The translations under genes and the position numbers were made by a program. A stretch of DNA of 64,000 bases from Candidatus Latescibacterota bacterium (GTDB lineage Bacteria; Latescibacterota; UBA2968). The DNA lies in assembly GCA_965204375.1 (NCBI GenBank), contig OZ241986.1, positions 1,792,001-1,856,000 on the forward strand, read 5' to 3'. The first letter of the stretch is position 1, and every line of letters begins with the position of its first letter. The notes under the pieces were generated by a model that saw only the letters and a list, made by a program, of their open reading frames with translations, had not been told where the DNA came from and did no database searches. Below, piece by piece: positions 8,992 through 28,257 of this stretch.

Positions 8992-10890
8992 CACCCAATC
9001 GTACATCTCCCCAGCACGTTCGACAGCGCGATCTACATCTTCGCGCAACATCAACCGCTCCCCCACCAATTTCCGAGCGGCTTGCGCCACACAGTCCAAA
9101 TACGCTTCGCGGCTGCCATAGCGTTGAGCAATCGATAGTCGCGAATCGCCCTCGCGCTCATCCTCATCGCGCGCAAATGGTACCCACATCCCATCGAGGC
9201 CAACGAGCGCATCTGTCGCGCCGCGTTGTCGATAACGCCAGCCCGTAAACGTACCCAGAGGCGCGACCACCTCTGGCATGCGAATACCCGCGACCTCATT
9301 GCCATCTCGATCGACCTGGGGCACGCGCACCCCCAAAGGACGCCCCTTTTCAGGCGGCTCGATATCGATAATACCTGCATCCCATCTGTTCCCCCAGTTC
9401 AATCGCAGGGGGCGCCGCATGCGCCTGGGACTTCGCAAATCTGGAATAGTGGGAAATTTCAAATCATCCGCATCCACCAGAGAACCATCCGCAATGCGGC
9501 CATACCTGCTCTCAGGAGGAGCAACGCCCTCGCACACCCATCGATCTAACGCAACGAGAAGGGCGCGTTCTGCATAGCGAAAATTCACGGGATTTGGGGG
9601 CACTGCTCGCCCCGGTTTTGTGGGCACATCACCCGGACCATGTTTTGTACTTGCAAAATGATAAACGCGAACCGAAGGATGAATCTCGACATCCTCTTGC
9701 CCGCGTACATCTGTGTGAATCAAAGACGCGGCGCGATTCCAGTATTCGGTTGAGGTATTGGTATAAAAAATGTGAGGTGTCACCCCCGCAGCCTCACAGC
9801 GATCCAACAAACCGCCCGCTTCCCGCGTTTCCGTATCTATCTGCGACAAATCCGTAAATGGAAACTGCTCCGTGGGATACAACGCATCAAAATGTGCGCT
9901 GGCATGCCGCGAAGGCTGAGCAAACCGATGGTTAAATGACCCCCGTGCGCCGCCTGCAACATTGGCAAATATCCCATCGAAAACCTTTCGGCCAGCCTCA
10001 TCTCCATTAAAGCCCTCATACAACATGTGCCGCAAAAAACGCCCACTTTGCGACGACCCAAAAGCATACGCCCGCTCAATCGCACTGCCCAGCGGATTGC
10101 CATCCCTTTCGTACTTCAAAAACGATATAAAATCCCGGGTCGCGGCAAAACCCGTTCCCATCACAGTTGGATTTTTGCCTGTATAAACCAGATTGTAAAT
10201 GCGCCCCGGTTCAAATCCCTGTGGAAATCGGATCGCAGCGCGCCCATCTTCTAACCGATCAAAAGCCCATTGATTGCGCCCAATTTCCTCGGCTTCATCA
10301 TACGGATACGCCCGCACAGTGAGCACCGCATCGCCATCTTCCACGGGTTCATAGGGATCGTGATAGCGACTCCCCAGAGAATGCAAATCCGTCTCTGCAT
10401 CAACGACAATCTCACACGACACGGGACCGGTAACATCGACCACTGGCGCGTCCAATGTCATCAAATTGGTAGCGCCTTCTGCTTCAGACGGCACATCGGC
10501 CTGCCAACCACACGCGGCAATCGTATAACCCTGCCGCATCAAAAAGCCATCGCCAAAATTTGCGGCAGTCTCTGGCATATTCGACCCAGTTGCCAGATTA
10601 AACATGGGCAAAATATTTTTGCGCCCGCGATTGACCACATTGTAAAACACAGTACTGTTGCCCCGCGCGACATCAACCGGCTTGAGCAAATGCACATCGG
10701 CTCGAAAAATCACCCGCCCATTCTCATCAACGGGCGCGAGATTTAAATCGACAATCGCCTCGTTTTGTTTGTGATTGGGATCAAGCGCGAACCACGCACT
10801 GCCACATAGCGCTTCATAAGCCCCCACAGCGCCGTATAACTTGCCATCGAGCACAGTTTCCCGAGAAGTAATTTCCAATTGCGTGAGCAT
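8965..10890 (-). CDS. Alpha/beta hydrolase domain protein (Abhydrolase_10, tannase-like)
   Basis: YNVVNRG, CGWQAD, AFGSSQSGRFLR nucleophile elbow, TSTEYW, VDRDGNEVAGIRMP. Confidence 0.85.
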   Translation of the reverse strand: MLTQLEITSRETVLDGKLYGAVGAYEALCGSAWFALDPNHKQNEAIVDLNLAPVDENGRVIFRADVHLLKPVDVARGNSTVFYNVVNRGRKNILPMFNLATGSNMPETAANFGDGFLMRQGYTIAACGWQADVPSEAEGATNLMTLDAPVVDVTGPVSCEIVVDAETDLHSLGSRYHDPYEPVEDGDAVLTVRAYPYDEAEEIGRNQWAFDRLEDGRAAIRFPQGFEPGRIYNLVYTGKNPTVMGTGFAATRDFISFLKYERDGNPLGSAIERAYAFGSSQSGRFLRHMLYEGFNGDEAGRKVFDGIFANVAGGARGSFNHRFAQPSRHASAHFDALYPTEQFPFTDLSQIDTETREAGGLLDRCEAAGVTPHIFYTNTSTEYWNRAASLIHTDVRGQEDVEIHPSVRVYHFASTKHGPGDVPTKPGRAVPPNPVNFRYAERALLVALDRWVCEGVAPPESRYGRIADGSLVDADDLKFPTIPDLRSPRRMRRPLRLNWGNRWDAGIIDIEPPEKGRPLGVRVPQVDRDGNEVAGIRMPEVVAPLGTFTGWRYRQRGATDALVGLDGMWVPFARDEDEREGDSRLSIAQRYGSREAYLDCVAQAARKLVGERLMLREDVDRAVERAGEMYDWVMGSVKDEV

Positions 10891-10944
10891 TAATCCGCTC
10901 CAATTCTCAAAAATTCTCTACCAGTTCCGATATATCCGCACGAC

Positions 10945-11880
10945 CTAAAGCACAGTGAGATCGAAGGGATTGGACCACGCCTTGTCGCCATTTGGTGCAA
11001 TAATCTCAAAACGCACGTGTTTTGAGCCGGGCCGCAGCACGAAAGTGGCGGCCTCAAATAGCTTACCACCCTCGTGGTATTCGGTTCCCCTCGAATCTAA
11101 GACCGCAGCGATCCGCTGTGCGGGTGAGCATTTTACCGTGGCTTCAACCGTGCGACCTTCCCCACTATGCAACTGAATATCAAAAATCTGTGGCCCCGTT
11201 GACGAATAACCCGCACCAGATTCCAGTGCTTCGACAATGGCTTTGGGTGACCGTTCCTTCACACGCACCATAGTCCAGCCCTGATACGTATCGCGCTCTT
11301 CTGAATCAGCCGCGTGGGAATCGTCATTGCCCAGTGCCGGGAGCAATTGTCCGGACAAATCCATCCAATCGTCCCAGTGCACAGAAGACTCACCGCGCCC
11401 GGCGCACCGACAAGTCGTATTAAAAACTTCTATCCCCGCCAAACCCGTCAGCGGCATTGTATCGCGCAAAATATTGACCCCACTCCAGTGCGGATGTGCG
11501 AGCCAGATCGAACCCCCCTGTTTTTTTACTTCATCAATCACATGTTGCGGGGGCATCGCCCGGGCATCCATATCCTCTGAAATATTGAGTGCCACAAAGT
11601 GGTGGCGGTCGCCGCCAAAGGGATTGTCGGGATGCAATTCAGCACCCTGGATAAGCGTAAAATTTTCAGGACAGGTCAGTGTTTCGACAAATGTGATATC
11701 GTTATGATCTGATACACACAAATAATCGTAGCCCTGATTGATATACCCATCCACCCGTTCTTGCGGCGAGACCCGCCCATCTGAATTTGTCGAATGGCTA
11801 TGCAAATTCCCCTTCAGCCACATATAACCATCGCCATCAGATAAAACAAACGGATTTACCAACCCATTTTCCTCGGACAT
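10945..11880 (-). CDS. PHP-domain metallohydrolase (CehA/McbA-like)
   Basis: KGNLHSHSTNSDG, VSDHN, LAHPHWS, IEVFN, GNDDSH, AWSNP. Confidence 0.85.
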   Translation of the reverse strand: MSEENGLVNPFVLSDGDGYMWLKGNLHSHSTNSDGRVSPQERVDGYINQGYDYLCVSDHNDITFVETLTCPENFTLIQGAELHPDNPFGGDRHHFVALNISEDMDARAMPPQHVIDEVKKQGGSIWLAHPHWSGVNILRDTMPLTGLAGIEVFNTTCRCAGRGESSVHWDDWMDLSGQLLPALGNDDSHAADSEERDTYQGWTMVRVKERSPKAIVEALESGAGYSSTGPQIFDIQLHSGEGRTVEATVKCSPAQRIAAVLDSRGTEYHEGGKLFEAATFVLRPGSKHVRFEIIAPNGDKAWSNPFDLTVL

Positions 11881-11904
11881 AACAAACTCCTTTGATTTAA
11901 TTCC

Positions 11905-13038
11905 TCACTCCTGCCACCAGACCTTCCCATCCCGAACAGACGCGCGACAAACCAATCGCTGCTCACCCATCAACACCTGTTCCATCGCGTCGGTCAACTC
12001 AAATTTCCCTTTTTCCAATTCAAATACAGCGACATCGCCCGCAGCACCAACCCCCAGGTGTCCAAGATCATCCTCTCGATCAATCACCTGTGCCGGTTCA
12101 ATGGTTGAGCGTTGAATCACTTCCTCGAGCGACATGCCCAAATTCAGAAACTTGGACATCGTCGTCGGCAAGTCGTAAACAGGACCATCGATATTGTACG
12201 AATGGATATCACTGCTGATGGTATCGGGTGGAAAACCATCTTCCATCGCTGCGCGCCCCACGTCGTAACTAAAACTGCCCAATCCGTGGCCAATGTCAAA
12301 AATCACCCCGCGATCGCGCGCATCCCACGCCTCAGAAATCACCTTTCCCCGATTGTCGATAATCGACGCGGGTTGCGTACCGTGAAAACAATGGGTCACA
12401 ATATCGCCGGGGCGCAGAGGCTGAAGCAGGTCGCGCAAAGGCACATCGGCATTGCTGATATGAACCATCAGGGGTTTTTCGCACCGATTGGCGGCTTCCA
12501 GGGCAATTTGCAACAAATCGCGCACATCCGCATCGCCGCCCACGCCTTTGTACAAACGCACCTTAACGCCCAGTGCTGTTTTAGGGTGATTCAAAACCGT
12601 CTGCGCGCATTCGCTGGCCGACACATAGCCCTCATACACCATCTCGCCGCGCCGCCAGGGCAACCCGACACCCGACAGATTGACATAGGCCAAAATGCGC
12701 GTTGAAGACGGCTCCATCACATAGCGCTCCAATCCGCGATAATTGATCCATCCCGCCGTCCCCGTATCAACACTCGTTGTCACGCCCGTGCGCGGACACA
12801 AATCATCGGCCTCTATGCCAAAACTCGACACATCTTTGTACACATGGGTATGCAAATCGATCAGCCCCGGCATCACGAGACATCCGCTTGCGTCAATTAC
12901 TGAATCAGCCTCACCCAAATCGCGCCCAATAGCTGCCACCACGCCATCCTTCAACGCCACATCCAATGCGCCATGTACGCCATTGGCCGGATCTATCACC
13001 GTGCCACCTGTTATCAACACATCGTATTGACCAGCCAT
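11905..13038 (-). CDS. Amidohydrolase/deacetylase-family metallohydrolase (dihydroorotase-like)
   Basis: PGLIDLHTH, VDTGTAG, GVKVR, MVHI, THCF, DIGHG, SSDIH. ATG at 13038 after GAGGA. Confidence 0.85.
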   Translation of the reverse strand: MAGQYDVLITGGTVIDPANGVHGALDVALKDGVVAAIGRDLGEADSVIDASGCLVMPGLIDLHTHVYKDVSSFGIEADDLCPRTGVTTSVDTGTAGWINYRGLERYVMEPSSTRILAYVNLSGVGLPWRRGEMVYEGYVSASECAQTVLNHPKTALGVKVRLYKGVGGDADVRDLLQIALEAANRCEKPLMVHISNADVPLRDLLQPLRPGDIVTHCFHGTQPASIIDNRGKVISEAWDARDRGVIFDIGHGLGSFSYDVGRAAMEDGFPPDTISSDIHSYNIDGPVYDLPTTMSKFLNLGMSLEEVIQRSTIEPAQVIDREDDLGHLGVGAAGDVAVFELEKGKFELTDAMEQVLMGEQRLVCRASVRDGKVWWQE

Positions 13039-13045
13039 ATCATCC

Positions 13046-14044
13046 TCACGATCGCTCTGCAATATAGGTTTCCGCATCAATTTTTCCCTCGGCAATCAAT
13101 TCGCGGAACAGTACCACAGTTTCAGCCACGCCTTCTGTCAGCTGCTTGTGCGCCACTGTGCCAATCGCAGCCTCTAATCCACTGCCATCGACTTCCTGGG
13201 GAAACGGCAACTGAATATCTTCAAACGTAATCTTATCCGCAGCTTCAGGTGCTGCCCGATCAATCGCATCCTTCACATCCTGCATATCGGGTGCAAATCC
13301 CCCCAAATTAAATGCCCCGGCACCTGTGTAATCAGCCCGTGCAGCCTGAATAAACGCACGCGCCGTATCATCCGCATACTGAAAAACAGTGCGCCCACCA
13401 TAAGAAATGTGATAGGGCAAATTGGCTGCCGCTGCGAGCATAGCTGTCGTTGGCGTAGAAGTAATTCCCTGATCTCGCCCCACCCCATAGACCACATAGG
13501 GCCGAAAGCCGATAGAAGACACCCCCTCGTCGAGCCAATACACATGCGCGGTTCCCTCATTCGCCTGTTTGTACACGCCGTAATGCGTATGGGGCATCAG
13601 CGCGGAATCATCTCGCATCACAGCGCCCGGCTCGTAATCTTCGGGCGCGCCAAAAACAGCGACAGAGCTTGCATAGACCACTTTGCCAATGTGCTCCCGT
13701 CGGCGTTTCACAGCTTCAAAAACATTTGCAGTACCCACCACATTGACCCGCGCGCCGAGCGGCGGATCGGCCTTGCAAAACGGCACTTGAAGCCCGGCCA
13801 GATGAATGACATGGGTAATATCATTATCGTCCAGAGCCTCTTCAAAAGCAGGCAAATCCGCAATATCTCCTGCAACAAAATTTACCTGCGCCAATTCGTC
13901 ATCCGACAGCAACAATTGCAACCGCCGGGGCTTTGTCGCCAGATCGAATACCGTGACTGGCACCCCTTCACGCACCAGGTTATGCACGGTCCATGCGCCA
14001 ATACACCCCAATGCACCCGTAACTAAAAAACGCTCGTCAGCCAT
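13046..14044 (-). CDS. NAD-dependent epimerase/dehydratase
   Basis: LVTGALGCIG, HLAG, ASSVAVFG, YGVYK (YxxxK). Confidence 0.9.
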   Translation of the reverse strand: MADERFLVTGALGCIGAWTVHNLVREGVPVTVFDLATKPRRLQLLLSDDELAQVNFVAGDIADLPAFEEALDDNDITHVIHLAGLQVPFCKADPPLGARVNVVGTANVFEAVKRRREHIGKVVYASSVAVFGAPEDYEPGAVMRDDSALMPHTHYGVYKQANEGTAHVYWLDEGVSSIGFRPYVVYGVGRDQGITSTPTTAMLAAAANLPYHISYGGRTVFQYADDTARAFIQAARADYTGAGAFNLGGFAPDMQDVKDAIDRAAPEAADKITFEDIQLPFPQEVDGSGLEAAIGTVAHKQLTEGVAETVVLFRELIAEGKIDAETYIAERS

Positions 14045-14054
14045 AATTCCCTCT

Positions 14055-14093
14055 AAAAAAATCCGTTGGCATACACAATCACCAACGGATTTT
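14055..14093 (-). terminator. Intrinsic terminator closing the 14-23 kb membrane operon
   Basis: AAAATCCGTTGG-N12-CCAACGGATTTT hairpin with a U-tract on the minus strand. Confidence 0.75.
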
Positions 14094-14118
14094 CGTTATC
14101 AAAATGAACCCTTTGCGA

Positions 14119-16563
14119 TCAGAACAACAAGACCGATACCGACTTCTGGATCATGGCAATAGACACAGACGCCATTCCCACGAGGGCCATCCCTACGGAA
14201 AAGCCCACCGCCAATACTGTCGCATAAAGACGCCATTGTTTCTTGCCAAAACGCTTCCAAAAATAATAGCGGGCAATCAACGCACCGATGATCTGGGTGA
14301 TCATCGTATGTGGAATATTGGTCAAACTCTGCACATAACCAAAGATCAGCAAAATGGGCAACCCAAACACGGACAAAATAATAAAGAACACAAGTCCAAC
14401 GGCAAATCCGGTGCCAATAACCCAGGGTTTCAAAGCCTCGAACAAAATAGGCTGATCATCTGACGACTGCAAAAATGCCCCGTCAAAAGAAGGCACCTGA
14501 TCGATCTCGTATTGATAGAACAACTCTCGATCCTGCGGATCCATCGCCCTGGAAATGATCATTTCTGGATTTGGCGTATTCAGATGCGCGCCATCAGCCG
14601 CACTGCGTATTTCTGGCGCAGAAGGCAACCCCAGTGCTAAAGCTTCTGAAATATCGGGAGGAGCACGACTCAGCGTTGCGGGCGGGTATGGCGGAGGCTG
14701 TGCCTCATCAAAATTGGTATAAAAATAAGCAGTACTCGACCACGGCCCATACTTGCGATCTTCAATGGGTACACTATCCGGATCATCGGGCGTTGCCCGC
14801 ACCCGCCAGTACCACCACGCATTATTCGACAAATTGGCCGGCGTCCACGTTACAGTGCCCTCTTGCGAATAGTCAACTTCGCCGCGCATAGTGCTGGTAA
14901 TCCACACACATCGCTGAAGGGCGCGCAATGGCCAGAACAATTGCACGTAAGGATATGCATCGGACGGAATGGGCGCGAGTTTCCAGATATAGGACCAGTA
15001 CATAAAACTGGTCAGAAAAACCAGCGGCACCATAAAAATTTCGGCTCTCAGAATACTCCTGAAGCTGGTACCCGTCAACTCAATCTCTCGGAATCGCTGC
15101 GCCGCTGCCCCGTAGTTATCCAGGCCAAAATCCACAAACCAGATATGAATCCCTCTGAATCCGCTCAGGAAAATCGTGGCTTCTTTAATGTATGGAATAC
15201 TCACATTTTGCCCCACCATACCGTCTAAACGGGCATTCACAAATGAAATGAGGGGCGTATAAACAAATGCAAAAATAAAGAAAAACACCAACAAGGTGGT
15301 CGTCACCAACTGCGGAAACAAAATTTTTGATATTACAATGGTGTACAAGCTCGCCAGGCAAAACAACACCACGCAAATCCAAATCCTGAAATCACCTCGT
15401 CCGGGCGGCGTCTCCCACGATCCCTTCTCGGTCTTTTCAATCCGCGCGGTTCGCACCCCCCGCCACACCTGATAAAACCCGATAACAGTAATGGCAAACG
15501 TAATACCAATGCCAAAGCTCATCCAGAAATCAATACCCGTCACAAAGTGTGTCTGAATGGTGTCCATCCCCATAAACCAGTGGGGCATATATCCATACTT
15601 ATGTAAAAGTGGGCTTGCGATTGTATGGATGACCACCCCGACAAAGGACCCTATCACTGCCCAGAAGGGGGCGAGAAAGCCTGTAAAAATAGGTCCCAGA
15701 TGCAGGGTGAAGCCCAGAGGCGTCGCGGGTAAAAAATATCCTGTATATTGCGTAAAATCGACCCAGGGAATTGGAATAAGCTGCACGGGCTGTTCCATAA
15801 ACGCACCCGTAATAGCCGGCACAGCTACATAAACCATCCCCCACACCACACCGATCACTGCGCCAATAGAAAACATGCGCCAGCGCCACGTAATATCTCC
15901 ACTGCTCTCTTCTGCCAATGCCATAGCCCCATGCGCGTTGATGGGTGCAAACGGAAATGGCAGATTCTCGTAATCGGACGTGATTCGGAACAACACATAA
16001 CTGGCGGTAAACCAGGCAATGCGCCCCATAATCGTGCCCATCACCAAAAATGCAATGGGCCAAAACCAATCGGCGTGTAAAAACGTGCGCTCGATCAGTG
16101 CCTCGGAATTTGCAGGAGGTGCCCACCACCACAGTTCGCTCAATGACTTTTGTATGCCAAATTGTACGGCTGCAGGCGACTGCACAAAATACTGATGCCA
16201 CAACAGACCTTCAAAGGCATTGGACTCCCGGTTGACCAGCGAACTCGTCACATAAAACAGCAGATAGACTTCTTGCCGCTTGAGTATGGTAAACGAGCGC
16301 TTTGCCAGTTCGATAAACAAAATAATCGTGACCCACTGCGCTGCCGCGCCAATCGAGCCACCGATCATCAGATCCAGATAAATATTGCCGGGCACCATCA
16401 CAATCGACACAAATAACGCACCCACAATGGTCTTGCTATTGAACCCATTGACAAATTCGTCTGGATCGTCGAGCAGATCTCGATACTCTTCAATCTCTTC
16501 AAATTGCGTATTTTTCTTTGGTGGTTTGTCTTTGTTCCGTCTTAAAAGATTGCCTAAAGCCAT
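14119..16563 (-). CDS. OPT-like (oligopeptide transporter superfamily) polytopic membrane protein with an inserted FN3-like domain
   Basis: Many TM segments; AAAQWVTIILFIE, ENLPFPFAP, VSIPYIKEA, FREIELTGT. Soluble insertion at about 14455-14886. Confidence 0.7.
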   Translation of the reverse strand: MALGNLLRRNKDKPPKKNTQFEEIEEYRDLLDDPDEFVNGFNSKTIVGALFVSIVMVPGNIYLDLMIGGSIGAAAQWVTIILFIELAKRSFTILKRQEVYLLFYVTSSLVNRESNAFEGLLWHQYFVQSPAAVQFGIQKSLSELWWWAPPANSEALIERTFLHADWFWPIAFLVMGTIMGRIAWFTASYVLFRITSDYENLPFPFAPINAHGAMALAEESSGDITWRWRMFSIGAVIGVVWGMVYVAVPAITGAFMEQPVQLIPIPWVDFTQYTGYFLPATPLGFTLHLGPIFTGFLAPFWAVIGSFVGVVIHTIASPLLHKYGYMPHWFMGMDTIQTHFVTGIDFWMSFGIGITFAITVIGFYQVWRGVRTARIEKTEKGSWETPPGRGDFRIWICVVLFCLASLYTIVISKILFPQLVTTTLLVFFFIFAFVYTPLISFVNARLDGMVGQNVSIPYIKEATIFLSGFRGIHIWFVDFGLDNYGAAAQRFREIELTGTSFRSILRAEIFMVPLVFLTSFMYWSYIWKLAPIPSDAYPYVQLFWPLRALQRCVWITSTMRGEVDYSQEGTVTWTPANLSNNAWWYWRVRATPDDPDSVPIEDRKYGPWSSTAYFYTNFDEAQPPPYPPATLSRAPPDISEALALGLPSAPEIRSAADGAHLNTPNPEMIISRAMDPQDRELFYQYEIDQVPSFDGAFLQSSDDQPILFEALKPWVIGTGFAVGLVFFIILSVFGLPILLIFGYVQSLTNIPHTMITQIIGALIARYYFWKRFGKKQWRLYATVLAVGFSVGMALVGMASVSIAMIQKSVSVLLF

Positions 16564-16584
16564 AGATTTTCCCGTCTATAGATA

Positions 16585-19500
16585 CTATGCGTTGACCGCT
16601 GCTGTGGGAGCAGAGAGCAATTCCCGCCCTTTTTCCGTGTATTTGGCGCGATTACCTGGATCAACCGTTCGCCAGATCAAAAACTGTTTGCGAAGCGCAT
16701 TCATAAAGCCCTGATTGCCCCGTCGCCACGAAGCCACATCGCCCGAAAGCCGATCTATTGTCAGGGTCATCGAAAAAATATTGTGCTCTCCCGTGGGCAC
16801 GGCTTCAAAATGCACCTGCTGACTTACGCCCAAATCATAAGGTGCCAACCATATCGTCGTATCAATCGTATATCCCGCGCCGGTTGCTGCTTCAACCGAA
16901 TCAAAACGCGCGCCATCTGTATAAAACGCGCCCATGGACTCGCCCATGTGCGACTCGAAATAATCCACCAAAAACACCGACAGCCCAAATACATCTTTGC
17001 CGCCCACGGTAAATGGAAACTCAAAATGCCAGTGATCGCCTTCCGGATCGGGCAACTTCCAGCGGCGCGTCACATCGGGCACGGCCATCATTGACGCCTG
17101 GCGCGCGGGATAGATCGACGACAGCAAAACCACCACCATCACCAGTGCCGAAGAAATCACCGTTGACAATGCCGAATAATTCACATTAAGCCCTTGCAAC
17201 AACCCCTGCCACAACAAAATTTTGATCACCCCTTGCCCGAGCAAATACCCCGATACAGTACCCAGTACGGCATAAACGCACGCCTCGGCAATAAACAAAA
17301 AGGCGATGTGTACAGGTGCCAGGCCCACAGCAGAATAAATGCCGATCTCGCGGAAACGCTCGTACACCGACCCCATCATCGTATTCAGTACAATTAGCGC
17401 AGCCACCAGGATGGGAACAAACAAATTGGCAAGGCCGGGCAATGGACCCCATCCCAGCGAACTGTAAATTGACACCTGAATTTTGCCATCTTCCCCAGGA
17501 ATACCCGCGTACACAACCACCGACAACCGCGACACATATTCTTTGACCTGTTCCTCAACATTTACATCTTCGCGCAAACGAATCGCCACAGATTGCAGTG
17601 GGCTACCCACCTCTCGCAATATCTTATAGGGAATAATGGCAACATCGTCAGGATCAATATGCTCGAATGGCATGTTCTCGAGCTGAGGCTGTTCCAGGCC
17701 CTGTTTTTCGCGACTCTCCTGCTGAGTCATCTGAGAGATAATTTCATCATCCGTCAGCTTAAAATCTGCCGGACTCAACATCTCGCCATCCAGGTCCTTG
17801 AGATCGCGCATTTTTTCTGCATCGATCAACCCCACGATTTTCAACTGTTTGCCGAATAAGCGCACGCTCTTTTTGCCAACATCCTCTGGCTCTACCTTGA
17901 GCAATCCGGCTATTTTGCCTGGCAAAATACACGCGATCTCACCCTCTTCAAACCACCGTCCATGGCTCAACAAAGTATCGATGCTCGTGACTGCAGGCTC
18001 ATTGACCGATAGTCCCACTATCCCCAGCACTTTGGTCGATTTTTCAGGCGTTTCAATAGGCGTCTTTTTTAAGTCTCGCGTCACATACCAGCTGCGCGGT
18101 GCAATCTCACCCTGATCGAAAAAATTGATGCGGGCGTAATCATAAGCCGTATCCTCCAGCGGTCCCCAGAACTGGCTGCGGATCAACAGCCCTGGGTACT
18201 TACCTTCGGTATCATCCAGAGGGAGTTGATGAAAATCGAGCGTCGTCTTAATCGATGTAAAGGACAACACCGTAAATGTCAACAAGACCAGTGTCGCAAA
18301 TGTCAGACCGGTGCGCATTTTGCGCTTTTTCATGTTGGCAATACCCAACTGAAATGCTGCCACCGATGCGCTTATACGCCCCACATCCGTATCGTGCAAC
18401 AACACCTCTTCGGTACGCAACTGTCGGATATTGTCGTGAAACCGCCCCGACACAATGGCAATCACAAAAATTGCCAGTGCCAGAATCACAAAAGCCAGCA
18501 AAATCACAAACGGATTGGAGAGATCAAAAGCGGGATGCACCTGCGCGAGAACGATCCAGATCACCAAAAAAACCACGCCAAAACCGCCGATTTGTACCCG
18601 GATATCGGAAAAGGTAAAAAGCAACCGCTCGACAAAAAACGCACACGGAATGACCAGTAGCATAAAGAAAATTACGCCTCGAATCACATCGTTTTGCGTT
18701 GATTTTACGTCTGGATAGGCGCGCGATTCGAGGCCCATACCCGCGCGTGTGTGTTTGACAAACAAATCCCATTTCTTGTCTTGCATCGCTTCTTCAGCCA
18801 GATCCAGATGCTCTTTGGCCTGATCGTGCAAATTGGTCATTCGCTGGTTCTCAATCGAATACTTCGCCAATTCGCGCATTCGCGCCTCGTTCAGCGTCCA
18901 CATGTCTTTTGCGGCCTGGAACGAAGAGCGAATAAACGCCCCCCCGTGTTGCAAAATCTGAAACCCATCGCCACGCGCTACTTCCACACTTTCCGCACTC
19001 TTTGAGTTCAACAACAAATAGCGCACGCCGATCTCCCGCTCCCGCATCACAATTTTGATCCGTTCGCCCGGCGTTGTGAAAATGGTTCCCACCGGTTCTT
19101 CTGGACCAAAGCCAATGGCATAGCCGTATTCTTGCGGTGCCGTATTGCCGGGACCGAGCACGCTGATGCTCGTCAACTTGGTGAGATAACGAGGATCGAC
19201 TGTATCGTAAAAATCCGTAGCAATACACGGAAACAAAATCCGCGTGCGCTTGGATATCCACCAGTCCATATTAAACTCACCCCGGTATATGCGCGCCTGG
19301 CGACCGTGATTGGGCGCGTACGTAATTTCGCCGCTTTCTGGATCCATATAAAAAGCCTTCACATCCACGCGGCGTTCGGCAATGCCCGGCATGTAAAATT
19401 CGCCATTTTCATCGGCAATGTCGTAATAGACGCGGCGCACGCCTTTAATCGATTTGTCATTGCCCATTCGCAGCGAAGCCACAGCACCAGGGCGGGGACG

Positions 19501-21102
19501 GTCAGGGGTAATGCTCAGTCGGGGAAATGTACGCACAAAACCCTGTAACCCACGCATGCGATCGTCGGGGTCCAGCTTGTAATCGGGCAAAAAATCTTCG
19601 GAATTTAACCCGAGGTCGAGTACGCCTGCGAGCAGACGTACCTGCCCGGTGAGATTTTCGAAATTCACATGCTCGGGCTTATCCAGCGGGGTATCTACTC
19701 TGAAACGCGCATCGTTGACCGTAATGAGCGACAGTGCCGGCGTACCCGCTTCCAAAACGACCTCGCCATCTGTTTTCAGAATTTTCCCCGGAATATACAT
19801 ATCCCAGTTCATGCCGCCTTTGGGATTGATCCCATCGATGAGAGCATCGGCGGGGTCCAGATCAAAGCGCTCGGCTATCGCTTCTGAATAATGCACAAGC
19901 GATTTGCCAAATGGCGTGAAGAAACGCTTGTAATAAAAATTGCGCGTGCTGTTCCAAACCCCGATTTCATCTGTCTGACTCGTCAAATCCAGAGAAATCA
20001 ACAGCGGCAGTTCAAGGGGTTCGGTCATCAATGCGGCAAAATGCTTTTCCTTGCGAGAATGCCTGCTCAAAAAATCGCAAATGCCCCTGAATCCGAGATG
20101 ATGCGCGGAAGATGCGAGAAACAAAAGCGTGTGTTTGGGCGGGTACTTGCTGAAATATTCGGCCAACTTCATCACGCCCACAATCCCACACGCCATCTCT
20201 GCACCCGGCGCGCGCGCGGGCACCACAGACATCGCATCGTAATACGTATTGATCACTACGATTTTTTCGCTCAATACGGGATCGGTTCCGCGAATCCAGC
20301 CCAAAATATTCCGCGTCTCTTTCTTTTCCCAATCCATTCGCGCCTTCAAAGTGACATTGACCTCATCTTTTTGCGCGAGCAATCCCTTGAGTTTTTCGCC
20401 GCTCTCCTTATCTATCCAAAAACGCTCTACACTATTGGGCACCTGCAAAAATTTGGTCTCTGCCTGTGCGGTAAATGTGGAATCGGGTTCTATAAACACA
20501 ATCTGTTGCGCGCCGAGCATGGCGGCATTGAGCCAGTTGTTCCACGAATTAAATTCCATCAACACCACCGCACCCTCTACATCGCGCCCATTAAATTCCG
20601 ATACCTCGCCAGTGCCCCCCCACAAGAGATGCCCCCGAACTCCACCCGGAGGTAAGGTGGTTGTCTTGACCAGATTGGGCCACAAACCGTGAATGGTAAA
20701 AACCTCGTCGGTATCTTCCACCACTAAGCTGCCGCCCCGGTCTATGGGCACGGCCACGCCATACGTCTCGGCTTCTACGTCTTCCATGCCAAAACGCCGA
20801 AATTCAGATTCTATAAAATCCGCGATTTTTTCATGGCCGGGATAACCCACTACGCGTGAATCGTAACGCACAAACTGATCCATCAACATGCGAATTCCAT
20901 CTTCGCGCACAGCATCCAAAACCCGTGTACCCACTTCTTCTGCACGAGGAACGGGCACAGGAGGAACCTCGCCGGGCGTTTCCAATCCCAACAAAGCAGC
21001 TATATGGGGATTTACGCGATAGGGACCGGCAATCAGGAGCGCGGTGACAAAAATCCCCAGACCGATAAGGCTCCACACAATTTGCTTGTAATATTTATCC
21101 AT
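16585..21102 (-). CDS. M28-like/PA domain + FtsX/MacB-type ABC permease fusion (1505 aa)
   Basis: SRVVGYPG, NILGWIRG, YYDAMS, APGAE (M28 fold); KRKMRTGLTFATL and SVYERFREIGIYSAVGL...AEACVY...SIYPARQAS (FtsX permease signature). Confidence 0.82.
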   Translation of the reverse strand: MDKYYKQIVWSLIGLGIFVTALLIAGPYRVNPHIAALLGLETPGEVPPVPVPRAEEVGTRVLDAVREDGIRMLMDQFVRYDSRVVGYPGHEKIADFIESEFRRFGMEDVEAETYGVAVPIDRGGSLVVEDTDEVFTIHGLWPNLVKTTTLPPGGVRGHLLWGGTGEVSEFNGRDVEGAVVLMEFNSWNNWLNAAMLGAQQIVFIEPDSTFTAQAETKFLQVPNSVERFWIDKESGEKLKGLLAQKDEVNVTLKARMDWEKKETRNILGWIRGTDPVLSEKIVVINTYYDAMSVVPARAPGAEMACGIVGVMKLAEYFSKYPPKHTLLFLASSAHHLGFRGICDFLSRHSRKEKHFAALMTEPLELPLLISLDLTSQTDEIGVWNSTRNFYYKRFFTPFGKSLVHYSEAIAERFDLDPADALIDGINPKGGMNWDMYIPGKILKTDGEVVLEAGTPALSLITVNDARFRVDTPLDKPEHVNFENLTGQVRLLAGVLDLGLNSEDFLPDYKLDPDDRMRGLQGFVRTFPRLSITPDRPRPGAVASLRMGNDKSIKGVRRVYYDIADENGEFYMPGIAERRVDVKAFYMDPESGEITYAPNHGRQARIYRGEFNMDWWISKRTRILFPCIATDFYDTVDPRYLTKLTSISVLGPGNTAPQEYGYAIGFGPEEPVGTIFTTPGERIKIVMREREIGVRYLLLNSKSAESVEVARGDGFQILQHGGAFIRSSFQAAKDMWTLNEARMRELAKYSIENQRMTNLHDQAKEHLDLAEEAMQDKKWDLFVKHTRAGMGLESRAYPDVKSTQNDVIRGVIFFMLLVIPCAFFVERLLFTFSDIRVQIGGFGVVFLVIWIVLAQVHPAFDLSNPFVILLAFVILALAIFVIAIVSGRFHDNIRQLRTEEVLLHDTDVGRISASVAAFQLGIANMKKRKMRTGLTFATLVLLTFTVLSFTSIKTTLDFHQLPLDDTEGKYPGLLIRSQFWGPLEDTAYDYARINFFDQGEIAPRSWYVTRDLKKTPIETPEKSTKVLGIVGLSVNEPAVTSIDTLLSHGRWFEEGEIACILPGKIAGLLKVEPEDVGKKSVRLFGKQLKIVGLIDAEKMRDLKDLDGEMLSPADFKLTDDEIISQMTQQESREKQGLEQPQLENMPFEHIDPDDVAIIPYKILREVGSPLQSVAIRLREDVNVEEQVKEYVSRLSVVVYAGIPGEDGKIQVSIYSSLGWGPLPGLANLFVPILVAALIVLNTMMGSVYERFREIGIYSAVGLAPVHIAFLFIAEACVYAVLGTVSGYLLGQGVIKILLWQGLLQGLNVNYSALSTVISSALVMVVVLLSSIYPARQASMMAVPDVTRRWKLPDPEGDHWHFEFPFTVGGKDVFGLSVFLVDYFESHMGESMGAFYTDGARFDSVEAATGAGYTIDTTIWLAPYDLGVSQQVHFEAVPTGEHNIFSMTLTIDRLSGDVASWRRGNQGFMNALRKQFLIWRTVDPGNRAKYTEKGRELLSAPTAAVNA

Positions 21103-23086
21103 AGCGATGTACCCAATGTCCGCGTTCAGGGAACCAGATCATGTCGATTCCTATTGACAAAGCCACGCCGAGAATATATCCGACGAGCAAACCGATAAAC
21201 AGGGGTCTGGATTTGCGATAAACCGTTGGGCCGCCTACTTTTATGATGACAAACTTAATTAGCCACGCCAGAAAAGTTGTAAAGCTGGTGCGTCGAGCCA
21301 AAAAAGATCCCGAAATCGCCAGACCCACGGGATGTAACGGCCACCATACAAAGCGATAGCGCATATAGATCAATCCCGCCATCAAAAGACCGCCAATGCC
21401 CAAAAATACCGCTTGTTCGGGATTTTTCTCGTAAAACGGTGGCTCATCGGGTTTTTTGATTGCATCAACCGTGCTCTGAAAATGGCGTTCAGCGGCTCGC
21501 GTGATGTCCCAACTGTTGAAATTATAAGCCCCTTGATCGTAACCCAACCACACGGTGAACAGCATATTGAATAGCAAACTGACCATAAATACCAGACCAA
21601 GCGCGCCCATCAACCGCCGCCGCTGATTGCCGGGAACCCCCTCGGAAACGCGCCCGGCATGGGAAAGCGCGGGCATAAACAAGCCCTTAAAATTCTCGTT
21701 AATCAACACGGAAAAGCGAAAAGCAACGAGGGTGGAAAGCGAGATATTGCGCCTGCCGTAAAACGATGCAACCATACTCCATGAACCAATGGGTTTGCTC
21801 GCAAATGGCATGCCGGTATCGGCGAGGATCTTCGCCATACCCGTATAGACAAAAATCACTGCCAGAATGTATAAAAACCCTTTAAACGGATCGAAATTCA
21901 TCTGCGTCAGCCAGATAAACAAATACGCTATGCTGCACAGCAGACCTATGCAAGCGGCGCGATAAGACATCAATTCCTCGGAGTCATCCACTGTGGGGTC
22001 TCTCCCAAGTGCCTTCATCAACACATCGCGCAAATGTTTTCTCGCTACCCAGAATACCGAACCCACAAAAACGACAAAGGCTCCAAAAGTCTGCCAGTAA
22101 TACACTCCCGTGCGATAATAAGGCGTGGTGGCTTTATAGCCCCACTTGGTAAGTTGCCCGCCCTCAAAGATGAACACCAGATCAAAAAACCAGATTGAAA
22201 ACAGAACATCCAGGCTGGCAAAATAGGAAAAAAGAATGGTAAAAACGCCAAAGAATCCCCTGATAGGCGGCAATTGGCGATCAATCCAATACCAGCGCGC
22301 TCGGTAAATGGGAAAACGCGGAAAGCCCGGCAAAAAGTAATTGATACAATTCCAGGCCAGCACGCCAAACGCAATGGCAAATCCGATCCAGAACAAACGA
22401 TTGCGCATAAACTCGGGCAACCATCCCTCACCATCGCCCGGTTCAGAAGTCATATCGATCAACGGCGCCATGGCGGGAAAAACCAGGCGTTCGTTTTGCA
22501 CCCATTGTTTTCTGAAAACAGTCGCTACACAGGCCAGCATCAAAAAAGCCGCCGCCACAACCGTCGTCCACCAAAACAAGGGCAATATCCACACGCCCCA
22601 GGGGATAGTCGCACCGCTCGGCAAGCCTTCGTAAAACCACGCAATGGCATTGCCCTCGGGACTTGGCAATAGCCAGTTGGGCAAAAGCGGATGCAAATGC
22701 TCAGCCCACTGATTTTCTTCCGTAGCAAAATAATAAGGTGCCGTGATATAGCCGATCAAATAACCCGTCATTCCAAAACACGGCAGTGCTGCGCCCACAA
22801 GACCCATCGCCAAAATTGCATGCCATTCGCCTTTTGAGAGCACCCAGCCGGTCATTTTGGCAACAATGGCGAGTCCAATCATCAGAATCATCAGCACGAT
22901 CAACATGGCCATTGGGATGTGGCTATACGTCATCAGCGAAGCGTGCAAGATGTAGCGCACATACATAGCCAGCAGATCAAGAGCAATGACGAGAAATACG
23001 CCCAATCCCACAGCGCGCAATGTTACCGCGGGTTGTGAACTCGCATCATCTGCTTCCGTCTGAATATTTTGTATATCAAGAGCCAT
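21095..23086 (-). CDS. DUF6785/DUF6784-like polytopic membrane protein
   Basis: AVTLRAVGLG, RKQWVQNERLVFP, LDVLFSIWFF, WWPLHPVGL, GLLVGY; overlaps the next gene's start. Confidence 0.75.
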   Translation of the reverse strand: MALDIQNIQTEADDASSQPAVTLRAVGLGVFLVIALDLLAMYVRYILHASLMTYSHIPMAMLIVLMILMIGLAIVAKMTGWVLSKGEWHAILAMGLVGAALPCFGMTGYLIGYITAPYYFATEENQWAEHLHPLLPNWLLPSPEGNAIAWFYEGLPSGATIPWGVWILPLFWWTTVVAAAFLMLACVATVFRKQWVQNERLVFPAMAPLIDMTSEPGDGEGWLPEFMRNRLFWIGFAIAFGVLAWNCINYFLPGFPRFPIYRARWYWIDRQLPPIRGFFGVFTILFSYFASLDVLFSIWFFDLVFIFEGGQLTKWGYKATTPYYRTGVYYWQTFGAFVVFVGSVFWVARKHLRDVLMKALGRDPTVDDSEELMSYRAACIGLLCSIAYLFIWLTQMNFDPFKGFLYILAVIFVYTGMAKILADTGMPFASKPIGSWSMVASFYGRRNISLSTLVAFRFSVLINENFKGLFMPALSHAGRVSEGVPGNQRRRLMGALGLVFMVSLLFNMLFTVWLGYDQGAYNFNSWDITRAAERHFQSTVDAIKKPDEPPFYEKNPEQAVFLGIGGLLMAGLIYMRYRFVWWPLHPVGLAISGSFLARRTSFTTFLAWLIKFVIIKVGGPTVYRKSRPLFIGLLVGYILGVALSIGIDMIWFPERGHWVHRYG

Positions 23087-23246
23087 TGGCGCGATTTTTG
23101 TGAGACAAGGTGAAATTCCCTAAAAAATGTGCGGGAATAATTAACCCCCGCCCCTTGCTTTTGTCAAATGGTTTATATGTTTATAATTGTAATCCTGCAT
23201 ATAGCGCAACATCATTTCTGTTTGAGAAAAAACGCAAGCAAGAACC

Positions 23247-23275
23247 TTGACACCAATCAGCCGTTTTGTTAGATT
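23247..23275 (+). promoter_or_regulatory. Sigma70-type promoter for tRNA-Phe
   Basis: TTGACA-17 bp-TAGATT with an extended-10 TG. Confidence 0.65.
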
Positions 23276-23300
23276 TGGTAGTCTTATCGGGAAAGATGAT

Positions 23301-23376
<76 letters not shown>

Positions 23377-23429
23377 TTTTTTGCCTTGACCATACACAGA
23401 CGTATATTTCCTTTTAAAGTTCCAGGTAT

Positions 23430-23466
23430 AAAAAGGGTGTGAACACTGAGTGTTCACACCCTTTTT
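23430..23466. terminator. Bidirectional intrinsic terminator
   Basis: Perfect IR AAAAAGGGTGTGAACAC-TGA-GTGTTCACACCCTTTTT between the convergent tRNA and FGE-domain gene. Confidence 0.85.
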
Positions 23467-23488
23467 GTTTTTTGGTGAAAAATCGAAT

Positions 23489-24280
23489 TTACAAACTCTG
23501 AGCAACCCGAAACCCCACATAAAGACTTCCGGCAAAGGTCCTGTGTCGGTCGCGAGCAGCCGAGCGAAGGAAATACCCTTCCAGGTACCATGCACCGCCG
23601 CGCACCACGCGCGCAGTAGAGTCGCCGACCTCCCACGCAGACCCGTCATTGGGCGCGCCCACATATCTATTATTATAACGATCCAGAGTCCATTCCCACA
23701 CATTGCCGTGCATGTCGTGAAGCCCCCAGGCATTGGCCTCGAACGATCCCACAGGTGCTGACATCTCATTATCCCACTGACTGCCGCACCCATTGCAATT
23801 GGCGTGGTTGTGACCGAGATTATTCCCCCAGCTATACCTCGTCGCTGTTCCCGCGCGCGCCGCATACTCCCACTCTGCCTCACTTGGCAAACGATAGTTT
23901 TTTCCCGTCTGTTCCGATAACCAAGCTGTGTACGCCACCGCATCATCCCATGTGACATTGATCACGGGACGCCGTCCTCGACCAAAACCCCTGTCATCTG
24001 CCCGCTCGCGCCCCGTCGCATCCGTGAAGACATCGTATTCCTCAAACGTCACCTCGTACTTCGACAGCGCAAACGACGCAATCGTCACCTCATGCACCGG
24101 CCTCTCGGCATTGGTGCAACTTCTCCCCGAAACGCACCCCATCTTAAAACTTCCCGCAGGAATCACCACCATCTCTGGCGACTTAAAAGAAGCCCCTTCC
24201 TCCTGTGAAACCTGAGCGGATGCAACCGTGAAAAATCCCAATAAGACGAGAACAAAAATATTCCTGATCACACTCTGCAT
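23489..24280 (-). CDS. Secreted FGE-sulfatase-domain (SUMF1/C-lectin fold) protein, non-catalytic type
   Basis: Signal peptide; PAGSFKMG, RLPSEAEWEYAAR, NAWGLHDMHGNVWEW, RGGAW, GFRV. Lacks the FGE CxxxxC. ATG at 24280 after AGGAG. Confidence 0.9.
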   Translation of the reverse strand: MQSVIRNIFVLVLLGFFTVASAQVSQEEGASFKSPEMVVIPAGSFKMGCVSGRSCTNAERPVHEVTIASFALSKYEVTFEEYDVFTDATGRERADDRGFGRGRRPVINVTWDDAVAYTAWLSEQTGKNYRLPSEAEWEYAARAGTATRYSWGNNLGHNHANCNGCGSQWDNEMSAPVGSFEANAWGLHDMHGNVWEWTLDRYNNRYVGAPNDGSAWEVGDSTARVVRGGAWYLEGYFLRSAARDRHRTFAGSLYVGFRVAQSL

Positions 24281-24408
24281 GATATATCTCCTGTCATTAT
24301 TAACTGATAAATACTCATAACATAAAAAATAAGACAACTTCTTATGAATGAGAAATATATTTTGCACCATATCATCCATTCATCGCTCAAATATTAGATT
24401 TTCCAGTT

Positions 24409-25137
24409 TCAATGCACATCGCGTTTTACGATGGTCACATTGACCAGGACACCGGGGCGGACGTATTTTCCCGCATTCAAAAAAAGACCTGTTACTTTGC
24501 ACGTCCCATTTTCCGGATCAATAACAGGACTGATCCCGACAATGCGCCCGGGCAACGTGCGCTTTCCGCCAGCGGTCGGCACGGCAGACAGCGGCATATT
24601 CATTCGGATCGCGTTCAGCCTTTTCTCGGACACAAACAGATGCACCTGAAGATCCATGGGGTCAATGATCCGCGCGACCACGGTGTAAGCCAGTATCCAG
24701 TCCCCTGCCTTTACATTGACCTCAACCACCATCCCGTCCTGGGGTGCGATGATTGAGGTTCTGTCCAGTTCCATACGCGCGGCGACCCAGTTATAGTGTG
24801 CGACCTCGGCATCGAAGCGGACATTTTCGAGCTGCTGGTCACTGATCAGCTTCTTATCGTGCAATATTTCCAATCGCGCTTTCAGGGTCTGCGCCTTCTT
24901 CAGTGCAATCCGGGCTGCCGTTTCCTTCACATGCAGATCTCGGCGGGATAATACCATGAGGGTATCACCTTGAGTCACCCGGTCTCCCACCTCAAAGTTG
25001 ACCAGCTGAATCCGCGCGTTCATCCCGGCATAGACCGTCGCCGATCGCACAGGTACTAAAGGTGCTCTCAATATCAGTTCTTGTGCATTGACGCTTATGG
25101 CAATGAACATGCACAAAAACATCGCGTTGTATATCAT
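24409..25137 (-). CDS. Membrane-fusion protein / periplasmic adaptor (HlyD/RND-MFP family), short
   Basis: FEVGDRVTQGDTL, helical hairpin, IIAPQDGMV...VKAGD, ISPVIDPENGT, RPGVLVNV. ATG at 25137 after AGGAG. Confidence 0.85.
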   Translation of the reverse strand: MIYNAMFLCMFIAISVNAQELILRAPLVPVRSATVYAGMNARIQLVNFEVGDRVTQGDTLMVLSRRDLHVKETAARIALKKAQTLKARLEILHDKKLISDQQLENVRFDAEVAHYNWVAARMELDRTSIIAPQDGMVVEVNVKAGDWILAYTVVARIIDPMDLQVHLFVSEKRLNAIRMNMPLSAVPTAGGKRTLPGRIVGISPVIDPENGTCKVTGLFLNAGKYVRPGVLVNVTIVKRDVH

Positions 25138-25183
25138 AGTTGATCTCCTGTTAGACGGATTTGATCTCGTGCCCTTTAAATAG

Positions 25184-25200
25184 TGCAAAAATCGTGCCAA
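25184..25200 (-). promoter_or_regulatory. Sigma54 (-24/-12) promoter
   Basis: TTGGCACGATTTTTGCA on the minus strand, a full match to TGGCAC-N5-TTGCA, about 47 bp upstream of the MFP start. Confidence 0.85.
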
Positions 25201-25277
25201 AATTTTCCAAAAACCCGTAACTACTTGCAGGAGAGCGTGTTTTTAAAAAATGCCCCAAAAAAGGACATGCAGAAAAG

Positions 25278-25335
25278 TGTGTCATATGACACAGTAACTG
25301 TTCCAAATGAAACAGTTGGGACTATAATGAAACAG
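25278..25335. promoter_or_regulatory. Putative enhancer (three bEBP-binding sites)
   Basis: Perfect palindrome TGTGTCATATGACACA, then TGTTCCAAATGAAACA and ATAATGAAACA. The ATGAMACAG cores start at 25286, 25307 and 25327. Confidence 0.7.
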
Positions 25336-25361
25336 AGGGATTACAGAGAAAAATCACACAA

Positions 25362-25390
25362 AAAATGCCCTGAAAAACACAGGGCATTTT
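25362..25390 (-). terminator. Intrinsic terminator
   Basis: AAAATGCCCTG...CAGGGCATTTT downstream of 25464-27971. Confidence 0.65.
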
Positions 25391-25463
25391 GGAAGGTTTT
25401 TGGAACATACCATACAACGGGCTGTCATCATCGGTCCTGCGGACATTGTTTGCGTTTTGCCAT

Positions 25464-28221: not shown

Positions 28222-28257
28222 AAAAAAAATAGGGCAGACCTTGTGTGGCCTGCCCTA
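28222..28257 (-). terminator. Intrinsic terminator after the ABC ATPase
   Basis: Minus strand TAGGGCAGGCC-ACACAA-GGTCTGCCCTA followed by a T-tract. Confidence 0.75.

Follow-up and report, generated by a model that had tools for sequence, protein, structure and literature searches.

The genome of a Candidatus Latescibacterota bacterium (assembly GCA_965204375.1) was analyzed within a window of 64,000 bp (contig OZ241986.1, positions 1,792,001 to 1,856,000), in which three large membrane protein genes, referred to below as the triad, lie side by side on the minus strand. According to the open reading frame (ORF) listing, gene 1 (21095-23086) encodes 663 aa, gene 2, the giant (16585-21102), 1,505 aa, and gene 3 (14119-16563) 814 aa. 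Genes 1 and 2 overlap by 8 bp (21095-21102), while genes 2 and 3 are separated by 21 bp (16564-16584). These are real genes rather than chance ORFs since they have hundreds to thousands of homologs or strong Pfam matches. An intrinsic terminator 3' of gene 3, read directly from the minus strand (14093-14055), consists of AAAATCCGTTGG, a 12-nt loop, CCAACGGATTTT and a T run; its folding energy was -18.3 kcal/mol (z -4.6), and none of 200 shuffled sequences was equally stable. The terminator pattern scanner missed this hairpin because it accepts loops of 3-8 nt only. The arrangement given in the preliminary description of this DNA, with three co-oriented membrane genes that overlap by 8 bp at one junction, are 21 bp apart at the other and end in a terminator at 14055-14093, agrees with both the ORF coordinates and the hairpin folding. 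As comparison of sequences across genomes indicates, the triad is a conserved syntenic module of the Latescibacterota cytoplasmic membrane, in which an FtsX-type permease with a peptidase-like head is flanked by two proteins predicted to have the fold of oligopeptide transporter (OPT) family permeases.

Judging by its domain and profile matches, the giant is a MacB/FtsX-type (type VII ABC) permease fused to a PA/M28-like ectodomain. About eight transmembrane (TM) helices were recognized by eye, and the topology drawn in the same way comprises an N-terminal anchor, about 780 periplasmic residues, three extra TM helices, a MacB-type TM1, a periplasmic domain, TM2-4 and a 165-aa cytoplasmic tail. 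The FtsX domain (PF02687) was found at residues 1228-1337 with 57.8 bits against a cut-off of 25.5. Among 15 relatives sharing 40-93% identity, FtsX was matched in all 15, M28 in 8, MacB_PCD in 7 and PA in 2, and the eight M28-passing proteins include both giant paralogs of this genome. The giant itself matched neither M28 (PF04389) nor MacB_PCD (PF12704) at E <= 0.1. The family profile aligned to PA-domain aminopeptidases 2ek8 (4.4e-14) and YwaD (1.1e-10) at positions 61-354, to nicalin (E 4.9e-5) and to MacB 5lil (8.9e-10), with MacB, YtrF, LolC and LolF being matched over approximately 1165-1345. The end of the MacB-like periplasmic domain together with FtsX TM2-TM4 occupies residues ~1165-1338 (17089-17610, minus strand), which align to residues 482-655 of MacB 5lil and to YtrF, LolC and LolF. 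The cytoplasmic loop GSVYERFREIGIYSAVGLA between TM2 and TM3, with the pattern G(S/A)VYERFREIGIYS(A/S)VGLA, was near-invariant in all 21 giants compared. In MacB and LolC, the TM2-TM3 loop is the ATPase-coupling element. The cytoplasmic C-terminal domain (residues ~1340-1505; 16588-17085, minus strand) contains many invariant residues and belongs to no known family, having yielded no Pfam match and no usable Atlas match.

The PA/M28 aminopeptidase-like periplasmic head occupies residues ~61-500 (19603-20922, minus strand), and its site appears to be remodeled. In HMMER alignments to 2ek8 and YwaD, with the metal-ligand and catalytic positions being those of M28 peptidases, YYD stands for HHD/HYD, AE-MA(C/S)G for NDDASG/NDNGSG, and HH for the catalytic EE, so that YYD, GAE and HH replace HxD, D and EE. 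Across the alignments, the first His ligand is Tyr, the bridging Asp is Glu or a gap, and the catalytic Glu-Glu position is His-His, Phe or Cys; none of 21 diverse giants had the canonical His at the first ligand position or the Glu-Glu. Since the replacing residues Y288, D289, E302 and H334 are themselves invariant among 15 sequences, the site was probably repurposed rather than decayed, and the head is apparently a non-catalytic pseudo-peptidase. The preliminary description envisaged an M28/FtsX giant that captures or processes a substrate: the combination of an M28-like domain with a MacB/FtsX module is borne out by the profiles, but processing as a peptidase is unlikely because the canonical Glu-Glu, His and Asp are missing in 21 of 21 family members. 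For the same reason, and because the giant itself lacks a Pfam M28 match, we consider it very improbable that the giant is an active membrane-anchored aminopeptidase that trims periplasmic peptides, the products of which are imported by two OPT-type transporters, even though the profile matches to 2ek8 and YwaD, the eight relatives passing Pfam M28 and the naming of OPT as an oligopeptide transporter family all fit such an activity.

Gene 1 encodes a full-length DUF6785 (E 2.5e-100, 336.8 bits) and DUF6784 (E 1.1e-21, 77.3 bits) protein, with both Pfam models above cut-off; Pfam assigns no function to either of them. The AlphaFold2 (AF2) model of this protein, built from an alignment of 52 sequences, had a predicted local distance difference test score (pLDDT) of 92.8 and resembled barley Yellow Stripe 1 (YS1) in Foldseek (E 2e-7, TM-scores 0.60/0.65). 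VIA-align superimposed 540 residues on YS1 with Z 23.5 and a root mean square deviation (rmsd) of 4.1, the next best hit having Z 4.8. For gene 3, no Pfam or NCBIfam family was found, and 2,394 homologs were recovered at E <= 0.001 among 8,000 scored candidates, the named ones being mostly Latescibacterota; one homolog carries the NCBI name OPT/YSL family transporter. Its AF2 model (pLDDT 71.6, alignment of 31 sequences) matched barley YS1 with a Foldseek E of 1.2e-7 and, in VIA-align, Z 18.3 with an rmsd of 4.6 over 538 residues (next best Z 6.1). Two barley Yellow Stripe 1 entries were the only PDB matches at E <= 0.001 in Foldseek for the gene 1 and gene 3 models alike. The gene 3 model also contains an Ig-like beta-sandwich insert at residues ~558-702 (14458-14892, minus strand), recognized by its strands and by VIA Z values of 5-6 to immunoglobulin-type domains. 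This insert has no counterpart in the DUF6785 protein and, being a common fold, is only indicative.

Neither gene 1 nor gene 3 matched Pfam OPT (PF03169) at E <= 0.1. A six-frame search of the whole genome with the OPT model gave only two sub-threshold matches, the C-terminus of gene 3 (19.9 bits) and one DUF6785 paralog (20.3 bits), both under the cut-off of 25.8. When gene 1 was compared directly with gene 3 by BLASTP, nothing significant resulted (E 0.19), and therefore profiles and folds were needed to detect their relatedness: a profile of 47 DUF6785 paralogs aligned to the gene 3 family with an hhalign probability of 85.9 and E 5e-6 over approximately 200 N-terminal columns. Because of the YS1 structure matches, this hhalign link and the sub-threshold OPT matches, both flanking proteins are predicted to be remote OPT-fold permeases. 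By its model, gene 1 is a polytopic protein of the OPT/Yellow-Stripe fold, and gene 3 is likewise polytopic with this fold, at fold level only. Gene 3 had already been called OPT-like, which holds at that level; the DUF6785 protein had been regarded as a separate kind of polytopic subunit and is indeed polytopic, but appears to be a second OPT-fold permease. DUF6785, DUF6784 and one family-less protein type, that of gene 3, are now placed in the OPT fold. Fused forms were looked for as gene 3 relatives longer than 1,425 aa, and none were found, which is weak evidence. Open frames of 2,097 and 1,929 aa around the giants of two genomes (G110 and G082) were rejected as fusions: they represent Arg/Gly/Pro-rich read-through of GC-rich upstream DNA and were not matched by the hidden Markov models (HMMs) of DUF6785 and gene 3.

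The conservation of the triad was assessed in a scan with one genome per species, which yielded 569 stretches encoding giant relatives, of which 75 loci were kept. By record title, these were Latescibacter- (58), Gemmatimonad- (11), uncultured bacterium (5) and Planctomycetota (1); the loci are not independent, and many come from one genus. A partner was defined as a phmmer match at E <= 1e-5 on the same strand within 400 bp. DUF6785 was located directly upstream of the giant in 51 of the 69 loci whose flank was long enough, and the gene 3 type directly downstream in 43 of 65; in three loci, DUF6785 replaced the gene 3 type downstream, so that it was present on both sides. Both flanks were available at 62 loci, of which 35 contained the full triad, 53 at least one partner and 9 no adjacent partner. 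In six of these nine, DUF6785 was found 2.9-8.5 kb upstream; in one, both partners were 1.1-1.4 kb away; one contained two tandem giants followed by the gene 3 type, and one contained neither partner. The pattern recurs in giant clades at 92-96%, 86%, 77%, 65-70%, 58%, 54% and ~40% identity, with a spacing of -8 to about +150 bp that is kept through the clades at 40-55%. The order also survives a change of context, which is catabolic here, while in the 54% clade the triad is located between RelA/SpoT and RecD2.

The two families also occur together across the phylum. Among 121 genomes sampled, 108 yielded the giant and 107 the gene 3 type, each of the latter having both; one genome (57% complete) had the giant alone, and 13 had neither, so that the phyletic profiles agree in 120 of 121 genomes. 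All 13 genomes with neither gene belong to one family (f10), and in five of five f10 genomes with 91-97% completeness DUF6785 was not found either. In a quick tree of 61 DUF6785 proteins, 11 of the 17 giant-adjacent ones grouped in one clade of 13 (SH-aLRT 100), and the giant-adjacent label changed 6 times versus 15.0 in shuffles, none of 500 shuffles being as low. The possibility raised in the preliminary description that similar clusters exist in other genomes is therefore supported both by the triad and partner counts and by co-occurrence in 107 of 121 genomes.

Three giants are encoded in this genome: the window copy, a 70% paralog and a 1,641-aa copy followed by a gene 3 paralog. At the 70% paralog, DUF6785 has been displaced to a distance of 2.3 kb through insertion of an IS605-type TnpB and a Gp49/HTH (HigBA-like) pair between it and the giant (L020:10177-12371; G000:C1:5018177-5020371); in related genomes, DUF6785 is 2.9-8.5 kb from this paralog.

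The 6.34-Mb genome contains 47 copies of DUF6785. Two genes on each side of 45 copies were inspected in 40 loci (L107-L146). Sulfatases were found within two genes in 11 of 40 loci, and an FtsX permease in one. Other neighbors were heparinase II/III, rhamnogalacturonan and pectate-lyase-like proteins, fucosidase, PhyH dioxygenases, GFO/IDH/MocA oxidoreductases, enolase-superfamily enzymes and TonB-type receptors. By this gene content, the loci look like polysaccharide-utilization-type clusters using an OPT-fold importer, and DUF6785 looks like a general substrate importer of catabolic gene clusters, of which the giant-associated copies would be a special lineage. With 47 copies here, many beside sulfatases and lyases, DUF6785 probably represents the principal family for substrate import in Latescibacterota, and the finding therefore bears on the feeding of these uncultured bacteria, which degrade glycans and proteins.

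Immediately before several DUF6785 copies lies the same pair of genes without a Pfam family, encoding 717-806 aa and 320-357 aa (L120:1668-4913, L130:1503-4745, L131:1573-4899 and L138:1230-4652, plus strand). The pair is mirrored in L123, L124 and L133, and its smaller member is weakly PorV-like in L131; the two proteins may form an outer-membrane pair serving the importer. One DUF6785 copy contains a single in-frame TGA (G000:C1:3727110-3728624, minus strand; L133:5001-7058) and could be a pseudogene, a sequencing error or a case of a recoded codon.

An ATPase is not encoded in the triad. The probable energizer of the giant is an orphan LolD/MacB/FtsE-type ABC ATPase (28318-29139, minus strand) located 7.2 kb upstream in another transcription unit, whose best NCBIfam matches were LolD (7e-70), DarD, DevA, FtsE and MacB. 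Domain scans of the window genes revealed no further FtsX permease between it and the giant. In seven loci at 65-77% identity (L028, L037, L042-L044, L046 and L055), its ortholog immediately precedes DUF6785, which places it 2.7-3.9 kb upstream of the giant. An ATPase of the LolD type was found in cis in 10 of the 75 loci and in the cluster of one further genome (G011, described below); this count used 10-kb flanks, beyond which the ATPase would lie in some close relatives. That the ATPase at 28318 energizes the giant, as originally proposed, is a good inference from its type and from its position beside the triad in the seven distant orthologs, but here it belongs to a different transcription unit. 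The pairing is unproven because the genome holds 20 matches to the window ATPase (E <= 1e-30) and 79 FtsX-domain matches. A paralog of the ATPase with 59% identity adjoins a gene for a 223-aa LolC/E-like FtsX protein that nearly lacks a periplasmic domain (G000:C1:2956248-2957713, minus strand; L155:8251-9713), and this pair sits between a glycosyltransferase gene and trpE. Since orthologs of the short-FtsX/ATPase pair close the triad cluster in G011, a giant/short-FtsX heterodimer is conceivable. Long arrays of duplicated FtsX/ADOP-type permease genes of about 800 aa were also observed (G000:C1:4741720-4786621 and 3504094-3540519).

Taken together, the triad could be an uptake module in which the ATPase-powered giant captures an oligomeric ligand and the OPT-fold permeases import it by proton-motive force, a reading we prefer tentatively, its probability falling somewhat short of even. 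The giant, presumably a dimer like other type VII permeases, would be powered by a LolD/MacB-type ATPase (28318-29139 or the 59% paralog). ATP-driven motion of its periplasmic head would capture and present an oligomeric ligand, which would then be handed to the OPT-fold permeases and transported inward by the proton-motive force. Uptake is favored because OPT proteins import, the other 45 DUF6785 copies have sulfatase, lyase and oxidoreductase genes as neighbors, and genes for amidohydrolases, epimerases and hydrolases adjoin the triad. As for the ligand, something peptide-like is our best guess, since the head is derived from an aminopeptidase and the partners are derived from oligopeptide transporters, and since TPR and PqqD-like peptide binders are encoded in the extended clusters. 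The contact among the three proteins, the serving ATPase, the direction of transport and the substrate are what we infer in this scheme. Complex prediction for gene 1 with residues 800-960 of the giant (the three extra TM helices and TM1) gave a score of 0.00 in two runs, the fold of the partner being itself uncertain, and this outcome speaks neither for nor against binding. OPT proteins characterized so far are importers and solitary secondary carriers, and the type VII ABC systems characterized to date serve in export, extraction or signaling. A bolder form of the uptake reading, which we hold to be rather unlikely, is a hybrid transporter in which a MacB-type mechanotransducer is physically docked to two proton-driven OPT-fold permeases and its periplasmic pseudo-peptidase "hand", worked by cytoplasmic ATP hydrolysis, loads the secondary carriers; it would be a type VII importer by proxy and a main nutrient gate of the phylum.

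Several genes lie between the ATPase and the triad. An FGE-sulfatase-like (PvdO-like) gene and a gene for a short HlyD/RND-type periplasmic adaptor (24409-25200) were identified by Pfam and NCBIfam at 23489-25200 on the minus strand, and they adjoin the triad only in orthologs with at least 92% identity. Between the adaptor and the ATPase, in close relatives only, is the gene for an 835-aa secreted protein (25464-27971, minus strand), which is not a permease, contains a dockerin/EF-hand-like stretch and weakly matches (E 7e-12) the BT3328 hyaluronic-acid endo-lyase family. The lyase-like, HlyD and FGE genes look like an insertion in close relatives since they are missing between the ATPase and DUF6785 in the seven orthologous loci mentioned above. 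A tRNA-Phe (GAA) gene is located directly upstream of the triad on the plus strand (23301-23376; ARAGORN; Rfam tRNA 67.7 bits), with a promoter-like site at 23247-23275. Next to it, the scanner matched a 19-bp palindromic hairpin at 23428-23468, whose sequence was read on the minus strand and which is bordered by an A run and a T run at its opposite ends; it looks like a bidirectional terminator dividing the FGE/HlyD genes from the triad. Because the tRNA-Phe gene and this terminator lie between them, the triad probably forms its own transcription unit, apart from the ATPase, 835-aa protein, HlyD and FGE genes. At 23131-23151 (minus strand), just after TTGACA and some 35 nt ahead of the gene 1 start codon, there is a GC-rich hairpin with a T run behind it, which may be a leader or attenuator element. 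An Rfam search of 13000-30000 (E <= 1) gave the tRNA as the sole match, with no riboswitch in the 5' leader and no family for the 23131-23151 hairpin.

The adaptor gene is relevant to another explanation, in which separate machines share regulation within one pathway and one operon. The OPT-fold proteins would be ordinary proton-driven importers, and the giant would combine with a LolD-type ATPase, perhaps also with the HlyD protein, into a MacB-like efflux or extraction pump for a by-product or toxic compound. It is established that known MacB-type exporters use HlyD/MacA-type adaptors, and such an adaptor is encoded here; moreover, most DUF6785 copies occur without a giant, and 9 of 62 giants have no adjacent partner. 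However, the adaptor gene is limited to the closest orthologs and is cut off from the triad here by the tRNA gene and the terminator, and the gene order and tight spacing persist at 40-55% identity and in unrelated contexts. The agreement of phyletic profiles in 120 of 121 genomes and the dedicated lineages of giant-adjacent DUF6785 proteins also speak against separate machines, which appear unlikely.

Expression of the triad was examined in RNA-library contigs. In a coral metatranscriptome (X1) and in sponge metatranscriptomes of a second study (X2, X3 and X5), all three genes were covered. The junction of genes 1 and 2 was bridged by contigs at 20078-21547 (X1) and 20835-21258 (X2), and that of genes 2 and 3 at 16352-16999 (X2) and 16359-16866 (X5), which is consistent with expression and co-transcription of the triad. 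One X1 contig (13710-14850) crosses the terminator after gene 3. The next gene, encoding an epimerase, starts 11 nt past the T run of this terminator, and therefore read-through from the triad is possible. Contigs from sponge libraries gave nearly no coverage upstream of 23425; they come from relatives 95-99% alike, which may lack those genes. Coral and sponge libraries from two studies carry the 13000-25500 stretch or close relatives of it, which hints at a host-associated marine habitat.

The flanks of the triad (8965-14044 and 29288-32413) encode a NAD-epimerase, Amidohydro_3/1, a CehA/McbA-type PHP metallohydrolase, Abhydrolase_10, a xylose-isomerase-like TIM barrel, and a second epimerase and amidohydrolase. 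The NAD-epimerase, Amidohydro_3/1 and PHP metallohydrolase genes are syntenic with the giant down to ~66% giant identity.

In some genomes, the cluster extends beyond the triad. A 290-330-aa protein, for which no Pfam, NCBIfam or PDB sequence match was found, overlaps with a PqqD-like peptide-binding protein, and this pair comes after the triad at 21 of the 75 loci as well as in the distant genomes G005 and G011 (L061:17086-18451; L148:4014-5365; L149:10237-11669). The gene order in G011 is DUF6785, a TPR protein, the giant, the gene 3 type, a 293-aa protein, a PqqD-like protein, a short FtsX and a LolD-like ATPase. The order in G005 is the same as far as the short FtsX, and the contig ends before the position of the ATPase. 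Elsewhere in the genome studied here, the PqqD-like pair occurs alone (G000:C1:6107886-6109285, minus strand).

These clusters suggest a further possibility, which we also regard as unlikely, namely that the triad serves envelope peptide handling or signaling instead of nutrient import. The giant would be an FtsEX/LolCDE-like mechanotransducer, whose pseudo-peptidase head binds, releases or exports a peptide or lipoprotein, possibly recognized by the PqqD-like protein, and the OPT-fold proteins would export or recycle the peptide. Besides the PqqD-like pair after the triad, with the short LolC/E-like FtsX following in G005 and G011 and the LolD-like ATPase in G011, such a role is in line with the near-universal presence of the giant in the phylum, including small one-copy genomes and often housekeeping contexts. 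It also accords with the family profile match to nicalin, in which, as is established, a dead M28-like ectodomain is a binding module. However, characterized OPT proteins are known to import, and neither the PqqD-like pair nor the short FtsX/ATPase pair is located beside the triad here, each being encoded elsewhere in the genome. A gene for a precursor peptide was not noticed, although a systematic search for one was not made.

Returning to the uptake reading, a number of observations weigh against it. The pair of the 290-330-aa and PqqD-like proteins after the triad could, by its gene context, point to peptide maturation or export instead. No type VII ABC system is known to import. In this genome, 45 of the 47 DUF6785 copies have no giant nearby, so that the OPT-fold permeases evidently work alone, and 9 of the 62 giant loci lack an adjacent partner. 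No ATPase was found within 10 kb in 65 of the 75 loci, the ATPase in the window belongs to another transcription unit than the triad, and a gene for an HlyD-type adaptor lies upstream of the triad here. The RNA-library contigs are also compatible with carry-over of DNA, and a contig covering two genes is not equivalent to a single transcript.

The triad is real and conserved, and its parts are of known kinds (a type VII ABC permease, the OPT fold and the M28 fold), although they failed the strict tests of OPT membership (Pfam) and of M28 activity (catalytic residues). Like type VII ABC systems (MacB, LolCDE, FtsEX, YtrEF and LolF), the giant has an FtsX C-terminal domain and a TM2-TM3 loop of the ERxREIG type; its periplasmic domain between TM1 and TM2, which aligns to MacB by family profile, and the LolD/MacB/FtsE-type ATPase encoded nearby are putative further likenesses. 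Unlike them, it carries about 900 extra N-terminal residues, comprising a signal anchor, the PA/M28-like head, a beta-rich and helical region and, by eye, three extra TM helices, as well as a conserved 165-aa cytoplasmic tail, and lacks a cis ATPase in 65 of 75 loci. Its near-obligatory pairing with OPT-fold permeases is described for no member of this class in the literature searched. A full-text literature search found no paper naming DUF6785 or DUF6784 and, among the matches listed, no description of an FtsX/M28/OPT module, in accordance with the earlier statement that no characterized system is known to combine these parts.

The flanking proteins, of which gene 1 is a full-length DUF6785/DUF6784 member, resemble OPT/Yellow-Stripe-like transporters (PF03169; barley HvYS1, PDB 7wst/7wsr) in the fold of the whole protein, with about 540 of 600 residues aligned. 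They differ from them in sequence, being at 10-15% identity and below the Pfam OPT cut-off, and in the Ig-like insert of gene 3, and are putative transporters. With PA-domain M28 aminopeptidases (2ek8 and YwaD, 6hc6), the giant shares the PA and M28-like region by profile (residues 61-354), whereas the canonical metal and catalytic residues are replaced by invariant others. The catalytically inactive M28-like ectodomain of nicalin (7tm3) likewise belongs to a membrane protein, and the two may be alike in function. If true, a conserved partnership of a type VII ABC permease with OPT-fold permeases would represent a new way of coupling ATP to uptake.

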